A stretch of 64,000 nt of DNA from contig JAADHN010000066.1 of NCBI GenBank assembly GCA_013151865.1, positions 8,311-72,310 of the forward strand, read 5' to 3'. The notes under the pieces are model-generated. The model saw only the letters and a program-made list of their open reading frames with translations, was not told where the DNA came from and ran no database searches. Shown here piece after piece: positions 6,544 through 60,731 of this stretch. A program made the translations under genes and the position numbers. Position 1 is the first letter of the stretch; each line of letters starts with the position of its first letter. Origin of the DNA: Kiritimatiellota bacterium. Its GTDB lineage: Bacteria; Verrucomicrobiota; Lentisphaeria; Oligosphaerales; JAADHN01.

Positions 6544-8304
6544 TCACGAAAGCGCCCTCGAGGCTGTTTCGGCGGAGAACGGGACCCACGGCAAATCCCA
6601 TGGATCCGACTCCATGCGGACAGGCCCCCCGGGGCGGACGGAAAGCGCCCACTGAACTCCGGTATCGGCCAGGATGCCTGCCGCAGCAGCGTCCGGGGGA
6701 CGACACAGGCCCACCGGCGCACGCCCGATCTGTGCCGCGATCTCGGAAAGGCGTGCGCCCGACACATCCTCCCCAAGGCCCCTGCCTGCCTCGGAAGCGA
6801 CGGTGCCGGAGGGGGGCGCCAAGGCAAACTCAACTCCGGCCGCCGCCGCGGATCGAGCCGCCGCGAGCAAGGCAGCGTCGGCCGTACCGTCGCGGGACAC
6901 GAACAACTCGGGAGCAAGGACGACAGTGACGGGGAACGCCTCGGCCGTAAGCTCGCGGACCGTGACGAAATCGGCCGGGACCGACACTCGGACCACGAGG
7001 GCGACGCAAGGTTGCAGATAAAGGGACCGGGGGACTTCGCGCAATCTCCGCACGATTTCCGAAACCGCAACGAACCGCGTCCCGGCAGCGCGTGCTCTTT
7101 TCATCCGCGCAATCCACCGGGTTGCGGCGGACGCATCTGCCCCGGCCGCCGTCCCGGGACAGTGCCCGAAACGAATCACGGGCGGCGCCAGGAGTCGGTT
7201 GCGCAGGCAGGTCGAAGCCATGAGCAACCGGCCGGCTGCCTCACCGAGATCGACGAGAAACCGCACTGCCGGCACAAGAGGACCCGCCAAGCGACTCCGC
7301 ACCAGCTCCCGCGCCTCCAGCAGATCCGGAGATGCCCATGATGCCGCCACCGCAATCCGCTTCATCGTGCGCCGTTGCACCAGGGCGGCCCAACTGAGAA
7401 AACCGGCCGCAAACACAGTCGTTCCAAGCAACGCCCCGGCTGCCGATCCGACTCCTACCCCCAACACGGCCAGAACCAACAGGTTGGGGAGAATGGATTG
7501 GCGCAATGGGCCGATGGCGGCAATCCGGTCGGTCTTCAAGACCAGCGAACGGCCGAAATAGGCCCTGCCCCGCCGCACCGCCCACCGGGCCACAGCCCGA
7601 ATCGATTCACGCTGGCGATGATAGCCGAAAGCCCGCCCGTGAAACACCGTCTTGCCGATTTGCGCCAGTCGGTGAAAGAAAACCGAATCCTCCGACCCGA
7701 ATACCAGAGCTTCGTCAAACCCGCCCACGGCGTCGAAGGCATGTCGGCGGAAGGCGCAATTGGTGGTCGACAGGGCTGTAGCAGGCACCGGTTCGGGCCC
7801 GGCGGCAAGGATGCGCGGCAAATTGCCCGCCGGGAAACCGAGCACACCGAGCGCCGCCCCGATACGCCCCAAACCGTCCGATTCGGGAACAATTCCTCCG
7901 CCGACAGCGATCACGGCAGAGTCCGCAAGCGGCGCCAGCAGGCGGTCGAGCCAATCGTCGCCGGGCCGCACGTCGTCGTCCACAAAAACGATGATCCCGC
8001 CCTGACAAGCCGCAACGGCCCGATTCCGTGCAAAACCGAACCCCAAATCGCGACGCGGCAAAAAACGGTAGATCACACCCGGCAAAGGAGCGGGGGCGTC
8101 CCCCTCTTCCACAACCACGATCTCGACACGGCCACTGTATCGGGAAGCACTGACGTGCGCCTGGAGCGCCCGCACGGTCGAGACGAGGATCGCGCGCCGG
8201 TCCTTGCTGATGACCGCAATCGAAATCCGGGGAGCCGGCCGCGACCCCCGACGACCGACAGGCGGAACGTCAGCCGATGCGGATGATTGTTTCTGTTGGA
8301 TCAC
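6544..8304 (-). CDS. GT2 glycosyltransferase with TM helices and a C-terminal degenerate polysaccharide-deacetylase-like domain
   Basis: GFGFARNRAV, IVFVDDD and VGGFDEAL..GSED motifs, then a hydrophobic segment and a NodB-like tail (...DPWDLPWV). Confidence 0.8.
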   Translation of the reverse strand: MIQQKQSSASADVPPVGRRGSRPAPRISIAVISKDRRAILVSTVRALQAHVSASRYSGRVEIVVVEEGDAPAPLPGVIYRFLPRRDLGFGFARNRAVAACQGGIIVFVDDDVRPGDDWLDRLLAPLADSAVIAVGGGIVPESDGLGRIGAALGVLGFPAGNLPRILAAGPEPVPATALSTTNCAFRRHAFDAVGGFDEALVFGSEDSVFFHRLAQIGKTVFHGRAFGYHRQRESIRAVARWAVRRGRAYFGRSLVLKTDRIAAIGPLRQSILPNLLVLAVLGVGVGSAAGALLGTTVFAAGFLSWAALVQRRTMKRIAVAASWASPDLLEARELVRSRLAGPLVPAVRFLVDLGEAAGRLLMASTCLRNRLLAPPVIRFGHCPGTAAGADASAATRWIARMKRARAAGTRFVAVSEIVRRLREVPRSLYLQPCVALVVRVSVPADFVTVRELTAEAFPVTVVLAPELFVSRDGTADAALLAAARSAAAAGVEFALAPPSGTVASEAGRGLGEDVSGARLSEIAAQIGRAPVGLCRPPDAAAAGILADTGVQWALSVRPGGPVRMESDPWDLPWVPFSAETASRALS

Positions 8305-51100: not shown

Positions 51101-52419
51101 GCCTCAAGGCTTTGAGAAGCATGGAGAAGTTCCGAATCCCACGTGCGGCCCAAGTGTGGGAAGTGCCGGTGCATACCCCGGATATCCTGGCTGCCGCCGA
51201 CGCCTGCGAAGCTTACCTGGAAGCCTATCGAATCACCGGCGACAAACAATGGCTGGACCGGGCCGTGTATTGGGAAACCGCCGGCCTGCCCTTCCTCTAT
51301 CTTTGGGACGTGGACGCTTTCCCGTTCCTCCGCTATGCCTCGATTCCCGTATTCGGCGCTACCTGGAAACGCGGCTCCTGGTTTGGGAGGCCCGTGCAAT
51401 GGAACGGATTGCGCTGGGCTTTCGCCGCGCAGAAACTCGCGGAAGTCGATTCCTCCCTGCCCTGGCGGATGCTCGCCGCCGGCGTGACCATTTCCGCCAT
51501 GTATCAACAGGGGTCGGACCCCGAAAGCAAGAGTTTCGCCCTTTGGCCGGACAGCATCAGCGCGGAAGACGCACGGAAATCGGCATGGGTCTTTCCCCCC
51601 GTTCACATCCTCGAAAACGTGTACAAACTCATGGGGTACGAACCGCGCCCGACTACGGTGGCGGTCCCGGCCGGGGCGGGGAAAATCCGCATCGATGCCT
51701 GCGGGCGTATCGGAGCGCCGCAATACGCCGGTGGGGTGCTGCGGTTCGCACTTTCGGCCCCGCCGCCGTTGCCGACGCAGGTTCTGGTGATCGGAATATC
51801 GAGCCCCACGGAAGTGCTCGTGGACGGGAAAGCCCTGCCCCGGGCCGACACGGCGGAAAGACGTGTAAGAACTGCCGCGTGGTGGACGTACGACAGGGAT
51901 GCGCGCCTGCTCCGGGTGCGCCCCAACGTGACCGGGAAACACACGATTGCGCTGCGCTCGGTGCGGTGGCGGGCAGGCCGAGTCCTGCCTCAAGTCCAGA
52001 CGCGATTGGATTTCGATTTCGATTCCGGACGCCAGGGCTGGCGTCCCGCGCACGACATCGCTGCGGCAGACGCCGCGGACGGCGTGCTGGACATCACCGT
52101 GAACGGACCCGATCCGTACCTGGTCCGCCCCATGTGCCGGATCGACGGGAACATGATCGCGAGAATCCATGTGCGTATGGCCGTGGACGGTGGAAACCGG
52201 GCGCAATTCTACTGGACCACGGCGAAAGCCCCGGCCATGTCCGAAGCCCGGGCCGCCTGGGTCGCCGTGAACGCGGACGGCAGGATGCACGACTATTCGT
52301 TCGATGTGGGCGCCCACCCTTTGTGGCGGGGGCAAATCATCACGGCCGTACGACTGGATCCGACGAACGGGGTGAAACAGGCCCGCGCCCGCATCGACTT
52401 CGTTCGCGGCGATCCCTGA
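48196..52419 (+). CDS. Very large secreted hypothetical protein (CBM-like N-terminus, Ig-like repeats, probable (alpha/alpha)6 barrel, C-terminal beta-sandwich)
   Basis: Signal peptide, NGGFED, Ig-like LVVRNAG/LVLRNTG, AYLEAYRITGDKQWLDRA (alpha-toroid signature) and C-terminal WRGQIITAVRLDP. Confidence 0.65.
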   Translation: MKTMRTLLERVRGRIHCAVHNAGRRSRFGLYAFAACGFSVAATLAADVNPVSNGGFEDVGPDGRPRDWEYVGREARLVQDAHSGKRAILLRRTPEIAAQKGLETGLNRAWRPHSGERGRMLTERKGGIRFFYKVVRADADAQLRFFVIPMNAGPMENTGSPRAVFEVPKTYAGDGKWHLGIVGYDFTKGTACRWVQVSPRIMGQGTAEWLLDDIQWVPNAGPVPSIRDLRVYETPGAEGRSCTLRLVVRNAGDRPLKTRAVLSLSNDLRVRESSTRTVGPLAAQGTTAIEWTVLGARSPRSRAAVRLTAGEIEATRSVRFAPKIVESWIETGRFVLWPGARTQATLVLRNTGTCTADGITARIAVGAGLRVLGPAAVSGRSAVPGKLTRIGFQIEATAQTPVTEVRCTWQSVAGECGECRAELVVGAPAPAAPQDAPKDALRLTGRTAEIIFPRNGFGYGIGWVYARPSGEPIGVIPRLGRIVSGPADTAAVPLFADSAKRGPPGPCLGGKTDGSNRGGSSLTFLVKNGALAKCGLPEGVSIRFAVPGSGASGAAARLITVTVRARVTRPGAVRALDGPFLCPGEGASSSKRTEALFPGLEWLQGDEYSSWDTDIAFDHPDRLRSAPHPHKITIPLMVVRRNRVATGLFWHSRATWNDGVQPRDFAPDESAVDRPCAVFAAPDRFAGHASSTLGLFLPTIPHWIQPNERAAARAWPTQGAAPLRIRLVYGFYVNPASDSVLDAVLDWARVFGFPAPRRSPRARGPAPAPGSVDVYRGPGLPDWARAADFSEHWSPPAPGQWVDEVEWSMNAYLKSLWDPEQHGWWNYWGGPGLTHKTGAYPAFLLDCVIGERLTDDPELGKRLKALLDDVRGRAPESVPGGDDMGFRFGDPTAALAASAVQAGDIMRAQPAEGGWRFRPRIGKGGVFRGRDYRLLGRDGEEGNGLTARRAYNMLFVSRMTGDETLLSAGLKALRSMEKFRIPRAAQVWEVPVHTPDILAAADACEAYLEAYRITGDKQWLDRAVYWETAGLPFLYLWDVDAFPFLRYASIPVFGATWKRGSWFGRPVQWNGLRWAFAAQKLAEVDSSLPWRMLAAGVTISAMYQQGSDPESKSFALWPDSISAEDARKSAWVFPPVHILENVYKLMGYEPRPTTVAVPAGAGKIRIDACGRIGAPQYAGGVLRFALSAPPPLPTQVLVIGISSPTEVLVDGKALPRADTAERRVRTAAWWTYDRDARLLRVRPNVTGKHTIALRSVRWRAGRVLPQVQTRLDFDFDSGRQGWRPAHDIAAADAADGVLDITVNGPDPYLVRPMCRIDGNMIARIHVRMAVDGGNRAQFYWTTAKAPAMSEARAAWVAVNADGRMHDYSFDVGAHPLWRGQIITAVRLDPTNGVKQARARIDFVRGDP

Positions 52420-52427
52420 CCGTCCCT

Positions 52428-52631
52428 CAGAACTCGGTAACGCTGTAAAGCAGAATGCCCTCTTTTTTTTGTCACAGTCACCGCCAGTGTGGGCGACTAC
52501 TTTACAGAAGATGACGCTAAGCTCAGATTCGCGCGAAACTGTAACGCAGTCGCCCACACCCATTCCCGGGAGTCCGTCCAAAAAAGGGAATCCAACTTTA
52601 CAGACCTCCAAGCTCAATCTACTGAGGTCTG
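52428..52631. mobile_element. MITE copy 1 (204 bp)
   Basis: Left end CAGAACTCGGTA; the right end reverse-complements to CAGACCTCAGTA (10/12 match). Flanked by GTCCCT/GTCCAT, an imperfect 6-bp TSD. Near-identical to 59534-59742. Confidence 0.85.
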
Positions 52632-52750
52632 GTCCATGGATGGGACGCGCCCCGGGCCGAATCTGGAGGATTCTGTCAGGAATATTGGGTTTGTTTGGAA
52701 CATGTGGAAATGCTCGGTGTCGGAATGGTTGTTACAAGGAGATTTCGTTT

Positions 52751-53206
52751 ATGATCCTGGGAACGCGGCCAGTCCGTACCATGCCGCTGTTGGTGTTGGG
52801 GTTGCTTGCCTGTGTCCTGGTCAACGCAGGGGGACACCCACGCGTCGTGGTTTGCTACGGAATGGATGGCCATGTTTCATTGGAATCGACTTCCGGGGCA
52901 CGCTGCAGCCAGGTTTCCGAGGTGATCGTTCGCCCGACTGCCGCGCCGCAGAGAAATGTGTCTCTCACCGCGGCCGCCGGTCATTGCGCGCCTTGCGTTG
53001 ATATCCCCATTCCGTTCAGTGGATTTGAACAACAGCCTTTTCTCACGCAGGGCCCTTCCGTACCAAGCCTTGTTCCGACCGGCCCGGTCTCGGCTGATGC
53101 TTCTCCCGTGTTCACATCACTCCCTGCCGTCCGTCTTGTTCCCCCATCTTCCCTCGACTTCAGTCTGGCGCTCACGTCCCTTCGCACCGTCATCCTTTTG
53201 ATCTGA
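52751..53206 (+). CDS. Small exported Cys/His-containing leader protein with a Pro/Ser-rich tail ending LRTVILLI
   Basis: AAGGAG RBS, signal/TM helix, VVCYGMDGHVSLE and HCAPCVDIPI motifs. First gene of the MITE-bracketed operon. Confidence 0.7.
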   Translation: MILGTRPVRTMPLLVLGLLACVLVNAGGHPRVVVCYGMDGHVSLESTSGARCSQVSEVIVRPTAAPQRNVSLTAAAGHCAPCVDIPIPFSGFEQQPFLTQGPSVPSLVPTGPVSADASPVFTSLPAVRLVPPSSLDFSLALTSLRTVILLI

Positions 53207-53376
53207 CTTCCCCCCTCTCTTCCCGGTCGTCCGTATCCCCCTGAGCTGCCGACCTTGCGATGGCAGCACACTCTTGGCACTCTTGGCATCCCCGGCTTTG
53301 CCCACGCCCGCTGGCGTGTGTAGGTCGCATCCAACCTCCCAGAACGAGAGAATCTTAACAGACGCAGGCCAGCACC

Positions 53377-55335
53377 ATGTCTCAAAAGTTCCTGATATTC
53401 GTGACCGTTCTGGCAGTCGCAGCCCTGACGCTGCTGCTTGTCCTGCTGGCTGTCAGAGAAGAGCAAAGTACGAAAAGGATCATTGTCGAACGGGACAAAC
53501 GCATCGGTGAGAATGTCGTCGCCACCTTTACCGGCGGCGAGGTCACGACCAGCGAACTGCGCAAATTCATCAATGAACGAACCCGACGATCGGGCGAACA
53601 CGCTGCTTGCGACAAACACAGCTACGATCATTCCAAATGTTCGCCCGACGAAAAATGCGAGAACCATCCCCTCAATTCGGTCGAATCCTATCGGGCCCTG
53701 CTCAGGCAATTGGTCATGGACAAGATGGTTGAACGCTGGATCCGTGAAAAAGGGATGCTGTCTCGAAAACAGGTTAAACACCGATTAAAGCATCTGGTTG
53801 AAGAAATCAACTTGGGCGCCCTCGCGGGGGAAATGCACGCCGACAAGGTGAAACCCGACAAAATCGAGATGCGCCAGTACTATGAGGAACACAAAGATGA
53901 GTACAAGAATCGTCCTTTCAGCGAAGTGGAAGAGGAAATCGAGGGAATCCTGGTCGCTCGGAAACAGAGTGAGTTCATTCCAAAGTATATCGAGGAACTG
54001 AAAGCCAATGCGGTCATTGAGAGGAACTATGACCTGATTAAAGTCCCGGAACCGACCGAGGCGGAAATCCGAGCTTACTACGACCAGCACAGCAAGGAAT
54101 ATGTCCGCGCAGAGTTCCTGCGCATTCAAATTCTGCGAATCGGAGCCGAAGACGAAAAAGCGGGTCGGGCAAAAGCCGAAAAGGCCCTGGCCAAGTTGCG
54201 CGCCGGGGCAGACTTCGAAGAGGTGGCCCGAGACTTTGCCGACGACAAGACCGCGCCCATCGAGCTGGTGGAGCGCGGCCGGAAAAGCAAACGGTTCGAG
54301 GAACGAGTGTTTCGCTATTACGCCGGCGAACTGACGCCGATTTTCAAAGACGGCGGATTCTTCTATATCGTGAAGATCCTTGAACGGGAAGGAAAGAAAA
54401 AGAAGTCGCTTCCCGAGGTATTGGCGGAGGTTACCGCAGCCGTTCGTCGACAGAAAGAAGAAGAGAAATTCAAGTATAACAAGTATGACGCTCTTTTCAG
54501 CGTGCACGGCAAACGTTTTACGGTCGAAGAATTCCAGCAAGAGTTCTCGGAACTCTCCCCTGAAGAACAGAGGCAATTTGCCAGCTTCAAGGCCAAAAAG
54601 AACCTGCTCGATCAACTCATTGTCCGGCAATTGCTGATGGAAAAAGCCGAGGACAAAGGCGTGGAAGCTGAGAAGCGGAAAGAGATCGAGGAACTCAAGA
54701 AACGTGCCCTCCAGCAGATGCTGCATAAGGAAGAAGTGGACGAAAAAATCGAGGTCAGCGAAAAAGAGGCCAGAGAGCTTTATGAAAAACGGAAGAACGT
54801 CCTGATGGAACCGGCTAAAGCCAAGGTCAGCGTGATCCGGATCGGTACCGGGTTCAGCGCAGACGAACGCAAGCGGGCGCGGGAGAAAATCGAGGCGGCC
54901 CAAAAGAAACTCAACGCCGGGGCTGATTTTGCCGAAGTGGCCAAGGAGTACTCCGAGGATTGGACCGCCACGCGCGGCGGAGAAATGGATCGGTGGATCT
55001 ATGAAGGCGCCGGTCATCTCGGGGAAATCTACGAGCACGGATTTCACCGGTACGTTTTCGCTCTGCAACCCGGTGAGACGAGCGACTTCTTCGAGTTCCG
55101 CAACAACTATTGGATCGTCAAAATGCGAGAACACCGCCCGAGCCGCCGGCAGACGTTCGAGGAAGCGCGGCCCACGATCGAAGCATATATCAAGGCCCTC
55201 AAGCACGAAGAGCGCATGTTCGAACTGCAGAACGAACTGTTGGAGAAGTCGCGACTGGTCATCCGGGACTTTGTCTTGAGCCGGATGCTTCAGGCCGAAT
55301 CCACCGGCCATGAACACGAACGGGCACTGTACTGA
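53377..55335 (+). CDS. Membrane-anchored PrsA/SurA-like foldase with two parvulin (PpiC)-like domains and His/Cys insertions
   Basis: N-terminal TM helix, GADFEEVARDFADD, GADFAEVAKEYSED..T..RGG and LQPGETS motifs. Insert EHAACDKHSYDHSKCSPDEKCENH. Confidence 0.8.
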   Translation: MSQKFLIFVTVLAVAALTLLLVLLAVREEQSTKRIIVERDKRIGENVVATFTGGEVTTSELRKFINERTRRSGEHAACDKHSYDHSKCSPDEKCENHPLNSVESYRALLRQLVMDKMVERWIREKGMLSRKQVKHRLKHLVEEINLGALAGEMHADKVKPDKIEMRQYYEEHKDEYKNRPFSEVEEEIEGILVARKQSEFIPKYIEELKANAVIERNYDLIKVPEPTEAEIRAYYDQHSKEYVRAEFLRIQILRIGAEDEKAGRAKAEKALAKLRAGADFEEVARDFADDKTAPIELVERGRKSKRFEERVFRYYAGELTPIFKDGGFFYIVKILEREGKKKKSLPEVLAEVTAAVRRQKEEEKFKYNKYDALFSVHGKRFTVEEFQQEFSELSPEEQRQFASFKAKKNLLDQLIVRQLLMEKAEDKGVEAEKRKEIEELKKRALQQMLHKEEVDEKIEVSEKEARELYEKRKNVLMEPAKAKVSVIRIGTGFSADERKRAREKIEAAQKKLNAGADFAEVAKEYSEDWTATRGGEMDRWIYEGAGHLGEIYEHGFHRYVFALQPGETSDFFEFRNNYWIVKMREHRPSRRQTFEEARPTIEAYIKALKHEERMFELQNELLEKSRLVIRDFVLSRMLQAESTGHEHERALY

Positions 55336-55371
55336 CCGAGCACATACTGCTGTTGAAAGGAGAATGCCGAC

Positions 55372-56904
55372 GTGGAAAGAAAAGAGCAAACGGTCCTGAT
55401 CAGCATCGGCGCCAACGGATTACTCATTTCCCTGCGTTTTCTGCTCGCCTTCGTGTCCGGAAGTCTGGCCCTGAAAGCCAATGCCTGGCACTCCCTGGCC
55501 GACGTGTTCGTGCTGGGCGTCGTTTACATTGGCTTGTTTGTGGCACGACAGCAGGACCAGCGTTACGCCGGGATCATCGCATGGATGGAGAACATCGTCG
55601 CCATCTTCGTCTCGATCTTCATCTTTTGGATGGGCTTCGAGCTGTTCGGAGAGGCCGTGGCGGGAGAGGCCGTGGAACTGGCCTACGTCGTCCCATCAGC
55701 AATCGGTGCGTTTCTGGGCGTATGCATTACTTACTTCATGGGGCGGTACATGCTCTTCGTGGGGCACGCGACCGGCTCGCCCAGCCTGATTGCCGCGGGG
55801 TCTCATGCTCGAATGGACATGTTCTGCTCTACGGCGGTGCTGCTGGGGCTGGTGGGAAGCATTTTCGGCCTGGTCGGCCTCGATAAGGTTGCCGCCACCA
55901 TTGTGGTGGTCTTCATCTTCATGGCGGCCATCGAAATCTTCATGGCCAACGTCCGTGCCTTGCTCAGCGGTCGCGCCGAACTCGCCCATGAGCACGCGCA
56001 CGGCCTGAACAAACCCGGCAAGCTGGTCACGGCGGGCATCGCCATACTGATCGCGGCCGGGTACCTCGGCTCGGGAGTCTACTACGTCCAGCCGGACGAA
56101 CAGGCGGTGGTGCGCCGGCTCGGCAAGATCCTCGAACGCCCCTTCGGTCCCGGCCTGCATTATCGCCTGCCGTACCCGATCGACCGGGCGAACATGGTCC
56201 GTACCGGCACGGTGCGCGAAGTCGGGACCCGGAAACGCCTGCTGCTGAGCGGCGACGAGAACCTCGTGGAGGTTGACGTATCCGTGCACTATCGCGTGTC
56301 CGATCCGGTGAAATACCTCCTCAAAGCGGCCGCACCCGACACCCTTGTGCGCGAAGCGGCTCAGGCCAGCGTGCGCAACGCCGTGGGGCATCGACGAATC
56401 GACGATCTGTTGACCACCGGCCGCGAAGACGTTCTGGCAGAGGTCCGGAGGACACTCCAAGAAGAACTCGACAGGAGCGACACGGGTATCGAAGTGGTCG
56501 GTGTCCTCCTCTTGGAACTGCGCCCCCCAGAGGACGTCGTCGATGCCTTCTATGACGTAGCCAGTGCACGGGAAGACAAAGCCACCTACATCAACGAAGC
56601 CCATTCGGCACGTAATGCCTTGGTGCCCAAAGCACGGGGCGAAGCCGCCGAGAAAATCCTCGCCGCAGAAGCTTACAGAGAACAAAAAGTGCAGTACGCC
56701 GCGGGCGAAGCAGGTCGTTTTCTCAGCAAGCTCGAAGAATACGCCAAAGCCCGCGACATCACTGAAGTCCGTTTGTATCTCGAAGCCATGGAAAAAGTCT
56801 TGCCGGGCGTCAGAAAATTCCTGGTGGACGGTGACGTCGAGACGGGAGAGACCGACCTCTGGTTTGTTGGTAAGGACGCCGGAAACCTGTTTGGCACGAA
56901 ATAA
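55372..56904 (+). CDS. Cation diffusion facilitator (CDF) TM domain fused to an HflK-like SPFH domain
   Basis: GSLALKANAWHSLAD (TM2), SPSLIAAGSHARMD (TM5), linker HEHAHG, then YYVQPDEQAVVRRLG...PGLHYRLPYPID...LLSGDENLV...PKARGEA...RLYLEAMEKVL. Confidence 0.88.
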   Translation: MERKEQTVLISIGANGLLISLRFLLAFVSGSLALKANAWHSLADVFVLGVVYIGLFVARQQDQRYAGIIAWMENIVAIFVSIFIFWMGFELFGEAVAGEAVELAYVVPSAIGAFLGVCITYFMGRYMLFVGHATGSPSLIAAGSHARMDMFCSTAVLLGLVGSIFGLVGLDKVAATIVVVFIFMAAIEIFMANVRALLSGRAELAHEHAHGLNKPGKLVTAGIAILIAAGYLGSGVYYVQPDEQAVVRRLGKILERPFGPGLHYRLPYPIDRANMVRTGTVREVGTRKRLLLSGDENLVEVDVSVHYRVSDPVKYLLKAAAPDTLVREAAQASVRNAVGHRRIDDLLTTGREDVLAEVRRTLQEELDRSDTGIEVVGVLLLELRPPEDVVDAFYDVASAREDKATYINEAHSARNALVPKARGEAAEKILAAEAYREQKVQYAAGEAGRFLSKLEEYAKARDITEVRLYLEAMEKVLPGVRKFLVDGDVETGETDLWFVGKDAGNLFGTK

Positions 56905-56937
56905 CCCAGACACATTCGCAACGAAAGGAAAAAGCCG

Positions 56938-57912
56938 ATGGACGGAACAAACGGAAAAGCAACCTGGTTCAAACTGGCGGCGGGCCTGGGGGTGTTCTTC
57001 TTCGCTCTCCTGATCAGCAACCTTGTACTGTTTGTGGTCGATACAACCGAATATGCCGTGATCACGCAGTTCGGTCGCCCGGTGCGGACAATCCTGGAGC
57101 CGGGACTCCACTGGAAACTGCCCGAACCCATCCAGCTCTTGCGGCGCTACGACAACCGGCTTCAGGTTTACGAAGCGGGACAAGTCGAGTTTCTCACTCA
57201 AGACAAGAAAAGTATCGTCGTGGACTATTACGCCTCCTGGAAGATCACCGACCCGTTGGCGTTCCTCAAGACCGTGCGCGACAAGATCGGCGCAGAAGCT
57301 CGCCTGTCGGACGTGGTCTCGTCCGTACTGGGTGTGGGCGTGGGGCAATTCGAACTGAGCGATCTGATCAACACGGACCCCGCCCGCATGAAGCTGCACG
57401 AAATGCTGGCCGCCGTGACCCAGCGCTGCAACGAGCAAACCAGCCGGTACGGCATCCAGATCGTCAACGTGGAAATGCGCACCCTCAATTTCCCGGAGAA
57501 AAATAAACTGAGCGTGTTTCGGCGTATGAAAGCCGAACGGGAACAGATGGCCAGGAAGTACCGGTCCGAGGGAAGCGAAGAGGCGGCCAAGATCCGCGCG
57601 GAAGCCCGCAAAGAGGAGAAAACGATCCTGTCCGAAGCCTACCGAAAAGCGGAAACAATCAAAGGCGAAGGAGATGCCGAGGCAATCCGTATTTATGCCC
57701 AGGCCTTTCAGAAAGATCCGGAGTTCTACCGTTTCATCAGAACTCTCGCGGCGTACGACAAGATCATAGACGACAAAACGACGGCCATTCTACCGGCCGA
57801 CTCGGACCTGCTGAAGTACTTCGCCCGGGGGAGAAGCAGCCCCGCGAAAAACCGGGGCGGAAGCAAGCGCGCCATGGTCCCGAACAGACGCCCGGAAGGA
57901 GCCGAAAAATGA
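56938..57912 (+). CDS. hflC: HflC-like SPFH protein
   Basis: AVITQFGRP, PGLHWKLP, FLTQDKK, RMKAERE.MA..YRSEG and GEGDAEAIRIYA.AF.KDPEFY.FIRTL.AY motifs. Confidence 0.92.
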   Translation: MDGTNGKATWFKLAAGLGVFFFALLISNLVLFVVDTTEYAVITQFGRPVRTILEPGLHWKLPEPIQLLRRYDNRLQVYEAGQVEFLTQDKKSIVVDYYASWKITDPLAFLKTVRDKIGAEARLSDVVSSVLGVGVGQFELSDLINTDPARMKLHEMLAAVTQRCNEQTSRYGIQIVNVEMRTLNFPEKNKLSVFRRMKAEREQMARKYRSEGSEEAAKIRAEARKEEKTILSEAYRKAETIKGEGDAEAIRIYAQAFQKDPEFYRFIRTLAAYDKIIDDKTTAILPADSDLLKYFARGRSSPAKNRGGSKRAMVPNRRPEGAEK

Positions 57913-58895
57913 GCGAGATCGAACGCCACGACAACCCATGGGACGATATTCGGCGAGCTTTCGGCCATCTGAAACCGACCGTGCTTGTGCCGATCGCCGC
58001 GCTGGTCCTGGGCGCCGTCTACCTGGGCACGGGCGTCTACATCGTCAATCCCGGCGAGCAAGGGGTGGTCAAACGGTTCGGGCGAGTCATCGCGACTGTG
58101 GATGAAGGCGCCCACTATCGACTCCCGTGGCCGGTGGACACGGTCGAAGTCGTCAATGTGAGCAAGGTGCGGCGCGCAGACATCGGCATGGTCCTTCCCG
58201 AACACGAACATCCGGCGTTTCTGCCGGAAAAACTGCAACTGCTGACCGGGGACGAGAACCTCATCAACGTCGAAGCAATCATCCACTACAAAATCAAAGA
58301 TCCGGCCCGTTTCCTCTATCGCACTAACTTCGGCGAGGAAAGATTGCTGCACAACGCCGTCGGCTCGGCCCTGGTTGAACTCATCGGTCAAATGGCGGTG
58401 GACGACATCCTTACCACGGAGAAGATCAGTGCCCAGGCAAGAATCCTACGGAAAGCACAGAAGGTCCTCGATGAATACGAAAGCGGTCTGCAGATCAGCG
58501 CCTTCAATATTCGAGCCATCGTGCCGCCGGAGGATGTGGCGGACGCCTTTCGGGACGTCCAGACCGCCAAGGAGGATCGCGAGCAGGTGATCAACCAGGC
58601 CAGAGGCTTTGCCAACAGCATCCTTCCCGAAGCCCGGGGACGGGCCCGGGAGTGGACCAGCGAGGCCGAAGGCTACCGCACCGAGGTGGTCAACCGCGCC
58701 GAGGGGGACGCACAGAACTTCGAGGCAGTGCTGGCCGAGTACCAGAACGACGCCCGGATGTACAGCGAGGACATTACCCGCTATCGACTCTACCTCGAAA
58801 CCATGGAAAAAATCCTCCCACGCGTCAAGAAGTACGTTCTTCGGGCGCGTGCCGGCGGCGAAAAAGTGAACTTGCGCTTCGTCAACAGGGAATAG
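57909..58895 (+). CDS. hflK: Second HflK-like SPFH protein
   Basis: ATGA overlap with hflC. YIVNPGEQGVVKRFG, HYRLPWPVD, LLTGDENLI, AFRDVQTAKED, PEARGRA and RLYLETMEKIL motifs. Confidence 0.9.
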   Translation: MSEIERHDNPWDDIRRAFGHLKPTVLVPIAALVLGAVYLGTGVYIVNPGEQGVVKRFGRVIATVDEGAHYRLPWPVDTVEVVNVSKVRRADIGMVLPEHEHPAFLPEKLQLLTGDENLINVEAIIHYKIKDPARFLYRTNFGEERLLHNAVGSALVELIGQMAVDDILTTEKISAQARILRKAQKVLDEYESGLQISAFNIRAIVPPEDVADAFRDVQTAKEDREQVINQARGFANSILPEARGRAREWTSEAEGYRTEVVNRAEGDAQNFEAVLAEYQNDARMYSEDITRYRLYLETMEKILPRVKKYVLRARAGGEKVNLRFVNRE

Positions 58896-58922
58896 GCGTT
58901 TCAAAGGACCGGAGAGATCGAG

Positions 58923-59096
58923 ATGCTGGAAATAGTGCAACTGGTCGCAATGGTCGTGCTTCTTGTGGCGATGACGGGCATGCTCGTATTGGTTGCCCGT
59001 CTTGCGCGGGTCGTGGAACGCTGGGAACGACGGCTTTCCCCAGCGTCGAGACAAACCGGTGATCGAGAAACGAAAGGAGGTGATCCGAGTGGATAA
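58923..59096 (+). CDS. Small single-TM protein (57 aa), not in the ORF track
   Basis: GGAGAG RBS; MLEIVQLVAMVVLLVAMTGMLVLVARLARVVERWERRLSPASRQTGDRETKGGDPSG*. Its stop overlaps the next start. Confidence 0.65.
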   Translation: MLEIVQLVAMVVLLVAMTGMLVLVARLARVVERWERRLSPASRQTGDRETKGGDPSG

Positions 59097-59244
59097 AGTG
59101 GGTGCAATCCTGGACGGCGTTGCCACGCTTATCGTGGGCGTCGGCGTACTGGTGGTCCTTCTCAAAACGGGCGGCTTGGTCGCTGCTTTGGGAGGACGGC
59201 TCAACCCCGAAAACAAAGAAGAAAACGCAACCAGCCAGAGTTGA
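59089..59244 (+). CDS. Small single-TM protein (51 aa), paralogue of 59279-59410
   Basis: Near-perfect SD AAAGGAGGTGA followed by GTG; MDKVGAILDGVATLIVGVGVLVVLLKTGGLVAALGGRLNPENKEENATSQS*. Confidence 0.75.
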   Translation: MDKVGAILDGVATLIVGVGVLVVLLKTGGLVAALGGRLNPENKEENATSQS

Positions 59245-59278
59245 ACATGGAGTCCTGACTTGAAAGGAGACAGGTAAA

Positions 59279-59410
59279 ATGAGCAATGTGGGAGAAATCC
59301 TCAGTAATGTGGCAACGCTGCTGGTCTCGATCGGGGCCGTGGTCGTGCTGTTCAAAACCGCGGGCCTCATCACGGCGCTTTCCGAACGCATCAAGGAGTG
59401 GAAGGAATAG
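59279..59410 (+). CDS. Small single-TM protein (43 aa), not in the ORF track
   Basis: AAAGGAG RBS; MSNVGEILSNVATLLVSIGAVVVLFKTAGLITALSERIKEWKE*. Aligns without gaps to the preceding peptide. Confidence 0.75.
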   Translation: MSNVGEILSNVATLLVSIGAVVVLFKTAGLITALSERIKEWKE

Positions 59411-59533
59411 CCCGTCGGCTGTTTCATTCGACCGTCAAGGGCAGTCGCTCCGCAGCAACCTGCGGGGCGCTGCCCTTTCCGCTTCTGGGCAAAGTCGACC
59501 TCTGTGATCCACAACCCCCGGCAAATCGTGCTC

Positions 59534-59742
59534 CAGAACTCGGTAACGCGGTAAAGCAGAATGCCCTCTCCTTTTTTTGTCGCAGTCACCGCCAGCGTGG
59601 GCGACTACTTTACAGAAGATGACGCTTCCAAGCTCAAATTCGCGCGAAACTGTAAGGCAGTCGCCCACACCCATTCCCGGGAATCCGTCCAAAAAAGGGA
59701 ATCCAACTTTACAGACCTCCAAGCTCAATCTACTGAGGTCTG
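59534..59742. mobile_element. MITE copy 2 (209 bp)
   Basis: Same TIRs and orientation as copy 1. Flanked by a perfect 6-bp TSD GTGCTC (59528-59533 and 59743-59748). Confidence 0.88.
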
Positions 59743-60304
59743 GTGCTCATGTCCGATGCGAGGCATGGCAACTCGGATGATCCCATCTGGGTTGCTTCTC
59801 GCAACAATTCACTCGCCGAGCCGAACGAATCGACCTCCCGAAACGACCGTACGCGGACAGTGACGACGCCCACACGCAACTCCTCGCCCTCGGCGTCCGA
59901 CAGGCGCCAGCCACTCCGGCGGGGGGACCGCCTGATCGGCGAGCCGGCGGAGCAGAAAAAACGTCAGCGCGGAAACCAAGACCACAGGCCTGCACCGTGG
60001 CAGGCGCCGGGTGTGAACGCCACGCTTGTTTTGTACCAAAACCGTTACCTGCGCGACCCCACCTCACGGTATGGAAGAAAACGCAGTAAGGCATTGGTTG
60101 GTGAATAGATAAGACAACAAGTCTTCTACCTTTTGCCGGGGCCGGGCCGTTGCCGAAAGTGGTACACTTTTAACTTGGCGGTGAGACCGGGGGGCGCCAC
60201 GTCCTCTCCACGCTCCGGCCCCACGCAAAAATGCCGGACAGGGCACCGCGCCACCGCCACTCCGAAAACGGAAAACGACGCACCTTTTTTGGCAATCGCC
60301 GCTT

Positions 60305-60352
60305 GCATACCTCGGCATCCGTGGTATTATAACATCGACTGCCGAGGTATGC
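60305..60352 (+). promoter_or_regulatory. Probable PadR autoregulatory operator(s) overlapping a sigma70-like promoter
   Basis: Perfect 13-bp inverted repeat GCATACCTCGGCA...TGCCGAGGTATGC, which can also be read as two tandem palindromic sites. It overlaps TTGCAT...TATTAT, about 40 bp before padR. Confidence 0.6.
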
Positions 60353-60392
60353 GTGGACGACCTGCGGAGTTCGCAACCGGGAGACCGCAACC

Positions 60393-60731
60393 ATGGAATT
60401 CACACCCGAATTGATCAAAGGAACCGTAGTGCCCATCGTGCTGAAGCTCCTGGATGAGCGGCCCATGTACGGATACGAAATCATTAAGCTCGTGAACCGG
60501 CGAACCGAGAACGCGTTCCAGTGGAAGGAGGGGACGCTGTACCCGTGGCTGCACCGCCTGGAAGCAGACGGCCTGGTCCGCGGCGAATGGCAGGTCGCGC
60601 CGTCGGGTCGCCGCCGCAAGTACTACACCCTCACTCGACGAGGGCGTACCGCCATGGTGAGCAAACTCGAGGAATGGCGGGCACTCTCGACCGCGGTGAA
60701 CACGTTACTCTTGGGGCCGGTTACAACATGA
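60393..60731 (+). CDS. PadR family transcriptional regulator (short subfamily 2)
   Basis: LIKGT, MYGYEI, EGTLYPWLHRLEADGLV and RRRKYYTLT..G motifs. Confidence 0.92.
   Translation: MEFTPELIKGTVVPIVLKLLDERPMYGYEIIKLVNRRTENAFQWKEGTLYPWLHRLEADGLVRGEWQVAPSGRRRKYYTLTRRGRTAMVSKLEEWRALSTAVNTLLLGPVTT

Follow-up and report, generated by a model that had tools for sequence, protein, structure and literature searches.

Three tandem small genes, ORF1, ORF2 and ORF3, follow the last SPFH gene of an operon in the window, the whole 64,000-nucleotide stretch of DNA analyzed here. Judged by their pattern of conservation, they are real conserved genes, and the single-helix membrane peptides that they encode constitute a new small-protein family without a curated model or name. 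The general role that this family fills is already known: small accessory proteins of the membrane encoded in the operon of a membrane complex. The peptides are strongly tied to one operon subtype, with the gene order ppiD - CDF::hflK - hflC - hflK, and are linked neither to hflKC genes in general nor to every CDF::SPFH system. From the operon linkage and the co-occurrence we infer binding, and ORF1-3 would then serve the CDF::HflK-HflC-HflK complex as accessory subunits or as regulators specific to this lineage, a reading to which a probability of roughly one half is assigned.

Organization of the operon and the small genes

The operon lies on the forward strand and begins with the gene for a PpiD-like membrane-anchored parvulin of 652 aa (53377..55335; Pfam Rotamase_2/3, with a weak match to SurA_N). 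This gene is followed by a 510-aa fusion of a cation diffusion facilitator (CDF) transmembrane domain with an HflK-type SPFH protein (55372..56904; Cation_efflux at residues 9-198, Band_7 at residues 239-411), by an HflC-type SPFH protein of 324 aa (56938..57912) and by a second HflK-type SPFH protein of 328 aa (57909..58895). The fusion belongs to both of its parent families, with 98 bits for the CDF model TIGR01297 (cut-off 82.35) and 236.6 for the hflK equivalog TIGR01933 (cut-off 159.4). The HflC gene scores 208.4 against the cut-off of 134.4 for the hflC equivalog TIGR01932, and the second HflK gene scores 237.8 for TIGR01933, so that both are likewise members of their families. The three SPFH proteins, all of which pass HflK or HflC equivalog cut-offs, thus resemble those of the E. 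coli HflK/HflC-FtsH cage. The operon differs from that system in that one of its HflK proteins carries a fused CDF transmembrane domain without the CDF C-terminal domain, HflK-type genes outnumber the single HflC gene two to one, and no ftsH is present in the operon.

In the CDF half of the fusion, residues His-40/Asp-44 and His-145/Asp-149 are invariant among six orthologues of the fusion. These HxxxD pairs in TM2 and TM5 are taken by us to be the CDF metal site. The missing domain of the CDF half is the cytoplasmic one, and the profile match stops at position 205 of 285. A seventh transmembrane helix joins the CDF part to the SPFH domain. A further HflK-type gene is found outside the operon, on contig C24 of the window genome.

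ORF1 (58923..59096, ATG start) begins 27 nt after hflK and encodes a single-helix membrane protein of 57 aa with a basic amphipathic tail. ORF2 (59089..59244, GTG start) encodes a 51-aa single-helix membrane protein of the MDKVG type with a charged, variable tail, and ORF3 (59279..59410, ATG start) one of 43 aa that ends in RIKEWK. The three ORFs are thus present at the lengths given by the sequence-only reading, and each is preceded, as it had also stated, by a sequence resembling a Shine-Dalgarno (SD) motif: GGAGAG for ORF1, AAGGAGGTGA for ORF2 and AAGGAG for ORF3. The GTG start of ORF2 sits five bases past AAGGAGGTGA and overlaps the stop of ORF1 by 8 nt; the ORF list of the window gives only a longer, TTG-started frame for this gene. 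At the junction of ORF1 and ORF2, an SD motif, GGAGGTG, lies within the last codons of ORF1 and is combined with the 8-nt overlap RTGGATAA. This architecture, which explains why ORF2 starts with "MDK" and why the end of ORF1 is rich in glycine, is kept at five of seven loci with the starts as set, and at six of seven if the second GTG is used at L013. The junction points to ORF2 being translationally coupled to ORF1.

An 18-bp GC-rich hairpin followed by UUUCC (59437..59477 on the forward strand; MFE -49 kcal/mol) is found after ORF3 and is the probable terminator of the operon. Its z-score is -5.5, none of 200 shuffles folds equally well, and hairpins with z <= -3 are present downstream of ORF3 at four of the eight loci described below. 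The hairpin fits an operon end at this point, in line with the initial placement of the peptides at the end of the SPFH operon. With its weak T run, the hairpin went unreported in a simple scan for terminators. No Rfam match was found within 52000-60500.

Each of the three proteins contains one hydrophobic stretch, at residues 7-25, with KD19 maxima of 2.4-2.9. AlphaFold2, run with the family alignment, predicts one continuous helix at residues 2-42 of ORF3 (pLDDT 93), and one continuous helix at residues 2-38 followed by a disordered tail for ORF1 (pLDDT 77), in agreement with the single transmembrane helix originally assigned to each peptide. The amphipathic stretch proposed to follow this helix in all three proteins is confirmed in ORF1 only, where the hydrophobic moment of the segment (muH 0.81) is reached by 14 of 5000 shuffles. 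The corresponding segments of ORF2 and ORF3 are not significantly amphipathic (2714 and 1460 of 5000 shuffles, respectively). In all three proteins positive charges are located C-terminal to the transmembrane helix and the N-terminal tail is neutral or acidic. By the positive-inside rule, this distribution makes an N-out/C-in orientation likely, with the C-terminal helical extension in the cytoplasm. The peptides contain no Cys or His, and metal binding by the peptides themselves is therefore unlikely.

Conservation, paralogy and family

The arrangement of small ORFs recurs at eight distinct loci: the window, L014, L011, L012, L013, G263, G557 and G496. L014 is the same genome as G490 (Lentisphaerae bacterium GWF2_49_21) and has the same ORF layout as the metagenome contig L010. 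The most conserved of the three is ORF3, for which pN is lower than pS in all 28 locus pairs, with pN/pS values of 0.10-0.33 between the window and the other loci and NG86 omega values of 0.06-0.19 where dS is unsaturated. For ORF2, pN is lower than pS in 21/21 locus pairs, and for ORF1 in 27/28. ORF1 is fast-evolving, with 17-51% identity among orthologues; its frame nevertheless stays open, in the same place, at all eight loci, although no more than 3-15% of the shuffles of each do so. In the protein collection, ORF3 has 20 homologues with 77-98% identity, and ORF2 has one other, with 86% identity. A word-based search of this collection with ORF1 gave no match, ORF1 itself included, indicating that gene finders do not call ORF1. 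When ORF3 was used as a single query against 40 same-order relatives, only chance-level matches in long ORFs were obtained (E 0.08-0.9).

ORF2 and ORF3 align without gaps and are identical at 21 of 43 positions, a value that none of 20,000 shuffles reaches (mean 7.5, maximum 13). The 43 codon pairs comprise 5 identical, 16 synonymous and 22 non-synonymous pairs, and the differences at codon positions 1, 2 and 3 number 18, 11 and 29, with the third position differing most. The assignment of ORF2 and ORF3 as paralogues that diverge at third positions under purifying selection, which had been made from the sequence alone, is thereby upheld, and pN is also below pS in every locus pair for both. 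The limitation of this relationship to two of the three peptides probably does not hold, as ORF1 is probably a diverged third paralogue and all three would derive from one ancestral gene. The profiles of ORF1 and ORF2/3 align from Met-1 with an hhalign probability of 95% (E 2e-8), and with 84% (E 7.5e-6) when the hybrid protein of L011 is left out, compared with 0.6% and 0.3% for the control profile of the neighboring HflK N-terminal transmembrane segment. A common register is found in all three types across the eight loci, consisting of Met-1, often Gly-19, Leu-24 and a Lys or Arg at position 26, the last being invariant. At L011 there are only two small ORFs, the first of which (6802-6945) encodes a 47-aa hybrid that starts like ORF1 and ends like ORF3, to which it is 41% identical (E 4e-8), and no separate ORF2 is present. 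Such a hybrid is as expected from in-register recombination between paralogues. The ORF2 slot of L012 (6795-6926) is occupied by an ORF3-type copy. Recombination or gene conversion among the peptide paralogues seems to be ongoing at L011 and L012.

A profile defined by ORF2 and ORF3 was used to search 1.84 billion representative proteins and gave 28 clusters at E <= 1e-3, 27 of which contain proteins of 40-61 aa. These 27 clusters fall into two types, one ORF3-like and ending in RIKEWK, the other ORF2-like and starting with MDKVG with a charged tail. The only source name met in the family is "hypothetical protein". The 90%-identity cluster of one 43-aa member, P0002, also lists unrelated regulator-like proteins of 244 aa and 770 aa, which is probably a clustering artefact. 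The proposed family comprises proteins of 40-61 aa with the register from Met-1 to Lys/Arg-26 and a hydrophobic stretch at residues 7-25, encoded in tandem after the hflK of a CDF::hflK operon. ORF1-3 show all of these features, and the tandem position is confirmed at the eight loci.

Comparison with curated collections agrees with the earlier suggestion of an unannotated family. Neither ORF1-3 of the window nor any of 33 family members has a Pfam match above cut-off, NCBIfam and PHROGs likewise contain no match above cut-off for the peptide family, and a profile search of the PDB gave nothing at E <= 1. In PHROGs, two families were found, neither of them named and each with one member. Weak matches to the oxaloacetate decarboxylase gamma subunit (OAD-gamma), DUF948, HemY_N and holins span the hydrophobic helix only. 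The oxaloacetate decarboxylase gamma family, matched by 5 of the 33 members with a best E of 0.0019, was rejected: ORF3 scores 15 bits against NF003004, over residues 1-28 only, where the cut-off is 84 bits. In the ESM Atlas, unnamed clusters were retrieved at 0.81-0.84, a level of recognition below that of a lead. In the titles and abstract openings retrieved from the literature, neither these peptides nor the CDF::HflK fusion are described. Even on a cautious reading, the result adds three gene annotations that had been missing, along with a profile for detecting the family.

Linkage to the CDF::hflK operon and proposed role

At all eight loci the order CDF::hflK - hflC - hflK precedes the small ORFs. 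Among 351 genomes of the window's class, the family is found in five (including G490), in every case as two neighboring matches, and the CDF::HflK fusion, matched from residue 1 to residue 298 or 300, is found in the same five genomes and in no others; two further class genomes match the CDF part only, with 24-25% identity. In each of the five genomes the fusion and the peptide genes share a contig, with the peptides encoded 3-4 kb downstream. These five members span three families (f1, f19 and f13), and the distribution is thus patchy. In a phylum sample of 401 genomes, 64 have HflK-type matches, whereas the full-length fusion is present only in G000 and G263, and the peptides are found in the same two. 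Three other matches from the phylum search (E 0.0025-0.006) are located inside open frames of 275-775 aa and were taken as chance. The nine genomes that carry the family have no copy outside this operon, the adjacent pair there being the sole matches. A linkage of homologues to SPFH operons, as anticipated by the sequence-only reading, is therefore found for the CDF::hflK subtype (five of five class genomes, eight loci) and not for hflKC in general; the comparison covers the closer family members, and the 27 more distant clusters lie outside it.

The PpiD-like gene is also first in the row at L011, L012, L013, L014 and G263, the upstream regions of G557 and G496 falling outside this count, and at L013 two extra genes separate it from the fusion. 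A divergent operon is found in the phylum of G426, which is assigned to a phylum other than the window's, at G730:C154 and G770:C115 (L091 and L092); in this operon a CDF::SPFH protein of 585-586 aa, HflC and HflK are encoded in a row, and an M28/PDZ peptidase comes next. After hflK these operons contain no small hydrophobic ORF, and the family profile matches nowhere in either genome, indicating that cages of this kind do not require the peptides as a core component. Near-identical operons, with an ORF3 that is 79-93% identical to that of the window, are carried by L011, L012 and L013, which belong to MAGs with the titles Actinomycetota, Planctomycetota and Nitrospiraceae. Mis-binning of contigs and a recent transfer of the entire cluster are the candidate causes of this placement, and two of these MAGs come from the bins of one study.

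In the proposed mechanism, the peptides would be produced from one transcript together with the upstream proteins, with ORF2 coupled to ORF1. Each would insert into the membrane as one helix, with a short acidic or neutral N-terminal tail, the transmembrane segment at residues 7-25, Lys/Arg-26 and a cytoplasmic extension, and would associate with the CDF::HflK-HflC-HflK assembly at its membrane portion. The complex itself would be an SPFH cage of the HflK/HflC type, with the transmembrane domain of a CDF metal exporter borne by one HflK subunit, and the peptides may act on this exporter or on assembly of the cage. A complex prediction for the CDF transmembrane domain (residues 1-245) with ORF2 and ORF3 as partner, run without controls, gave a score of 0.00, which is no evidence on binding either way. 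The operon bears on the question of how SPFH cages such as HflK/C, prohibitin, stomatin and flotillin select and deal with clients in the membrane. Here the client, the CDF exporter domain, is fused to the cage and the operon brings its own three mini-proteins; if the peptides bind the complex, the system would offer a compact, expressible model of the relations between cage, client and adaptor, and a new family among the small transporter-tuning proteins. A far more specific arrangement, which we regard as speculative and improbable, would assign one paralogue each to CDF::HflK, HflC and HflK as dedicated transmembrane partners, positioned between the transmembrane helices of the ring and setting the order of the subunits or gating the tethered CDF exporter. 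An SPFH cage that combines integral single-helix subunits with a covalently attached client would be without precedent.

The fast evolution of ORF1, the divergent operons of G730 and G770 that do without peptides, and the variable number and type of peptide copies, with two ORFs including one hybrid at L011 and an ORF3-type copy in the ORF2 slot at L012, argue against the accessory or regulatory role proposed here for the peptides. The main rival explanation, which is considered less likely, is that the peptides are real but have a partner other than the SPFH cage, such as the PpiD-like chaperones, the P1B ATPase or FtsH, or that they are co-transcribed general membrane-stress peptides. Such a partner would be consistent with the second PpiD-like gene and the P1B-type metal ATPase that directly follow ORF3 in L011, L012, L014 and G263, with the PpiD-like gene at the head of the operon, and with the CDF::SPFH operons of the other phylum, which have neither a flanking ppiD nor the peptides. 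The window genome, however, has all three peptides, although neither a second ppiD nor a P1B ATPase follows ORF3 and no second ppiD was found elsewhere in the genome with one query. Moreover, the peptide genes abut hflK across a gap of 27 nt, precede the hairpin, and co-occur exactly with the fusion in the 351 class genomes. It is very improbable that the peptides are holin-like or type-I-toxin-like, perturbing the membrane with an activity controlled by the operon. The holin models BhlA, Dp-1 and Hol118, each matched by 1 of the 33 members below cut-off (E 0.03-0.055), were rejected; together with an equally sub-threshold match to the Fst toxin (1/33 members, the whole set spanning E 0.03-0.28) and a BhlA-holin cluster in the ESM Atlas at 0.81, below lead level, they are what such an activity could be read from. 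No curated cut-off is reached by any of them, PHROGs offers only its two nameless one-member families, there is no phage or antitoxin context, and the three paralogues show strong conservation in their place at the 3' end of an operon of housekeeping type. More improbable still is that the ORFs are untranslated, as chance frames in GC-rich DNA or as a conserved structured 3' UTR. In its favor, ORF1 is not called by gene finders and 8% of its shuffles stay open at 56% GC. This value falls to 3-5% at loci with 40-46% GC, where the ORFs nevertheless persist, pN is lower than pS in 76 of 77 pairs over all three ORFs, ORF3 is exactly 43 aa long in 19 of its 20 homologues, the SD motif and the start overlap are kept, and Rfam gave no match.

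The least probable explanation is that the peptides are divergent homologues of YjeT (DUF2065) or NfeD. In E. coli, hflK and hflC are followed by yjeT, a gene for a small membrane protein of the DUF2065 family. The present peptides share with YjeT the position directly downstream of hflK/hflC, as well as being small membrane proteins with no established function. In contrast, there is no sequence relation. DUF2065 is absent from the 16 Pfam families listed at E <= 1 in an hmmscan of the 33 members (0/33) and from scans of ORF1-3 singly, so that the lack of relationship first noted by eye is borne out by comparison with the DUF2065 HMM. The present proteins are, furthermore, three paralogous single-helix proteins tied to the CDF::HflK subtype rather than to ordinary hflKC, as HflK-type genes occur in 64 of the 401 phylum genomes and the peptides in 2. 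The NfeD proteins YbbJ, YqiJ and YuaF are comparable as membrane partners whose genes share an operon with that of an SPFH protein of the stomatin/flotillin type. NfeD proteins are larger and contain a soluble OB-fold domain. The peptides of 43-57 aa are single helices, and no NfeD match was found at E <= 1 among the 33 members or for ORF1-3 scanned singly.

The closest working analogy for accessory subunits or regulators of the complex may instead be provided by KdpF, MgtS, MgtR, AcrZ and MntS, proteins of about 30-50 aa with one transmembrane helix that tune a transporter or its FtsH-dependent turnover. The analogy with these single-helix regulators of transporters and FtsH substrates is suggested by the CDF domain, which is tethered to a cage of the FtsH-modulator type. 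The present peptides differ in having no detected similarity to any curated family, and to our knowledge none of the five is a tandem triplet or linked to an SPFH operon. In Bacillus subtilis, SamG and SamH, which are membrane proteins, recruit the SPFH protein SamI, which is encoded in the same operon (PMC13713150). SamG and SamH are larger, different proteins, and their SPFH partner SamI is reported to be cytosolic.

Downstream flanks and a dispersed repeat

The downstream regions compared were 59411-60390 of the window, 7181-11570 of L011, 7203-11421 of L012, 7944-11422 of L014 and, for G263, 1433-4715 of L021; the contig of L013 stops within the second ppiD. Ferritin and rubrerythrin genes are additionally present downstream in G263, and a gene for a DegP-like protease in L014. 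The downstream neighbors in these relatives point to metal and envelope stress. The second ppiD of G263 looks broken into short ORFs.

Two same-orientation copies of a dispersed repeat of about 205 nt, at 52428-52633 and 59534-59744 (88-95% identical), bracket the operon in the window, and the repeat is located exactly at the break where the second ppiD and the ATPase are missing. The repeat has 33 matches in the genome with 73-100% identity, on both strands and in several cases at contig ends. It has no Rfam match and contains a 12-bp perfect long-range stem (z -3.4), and is possibly a MITE-like element or else a family of structured RNA.
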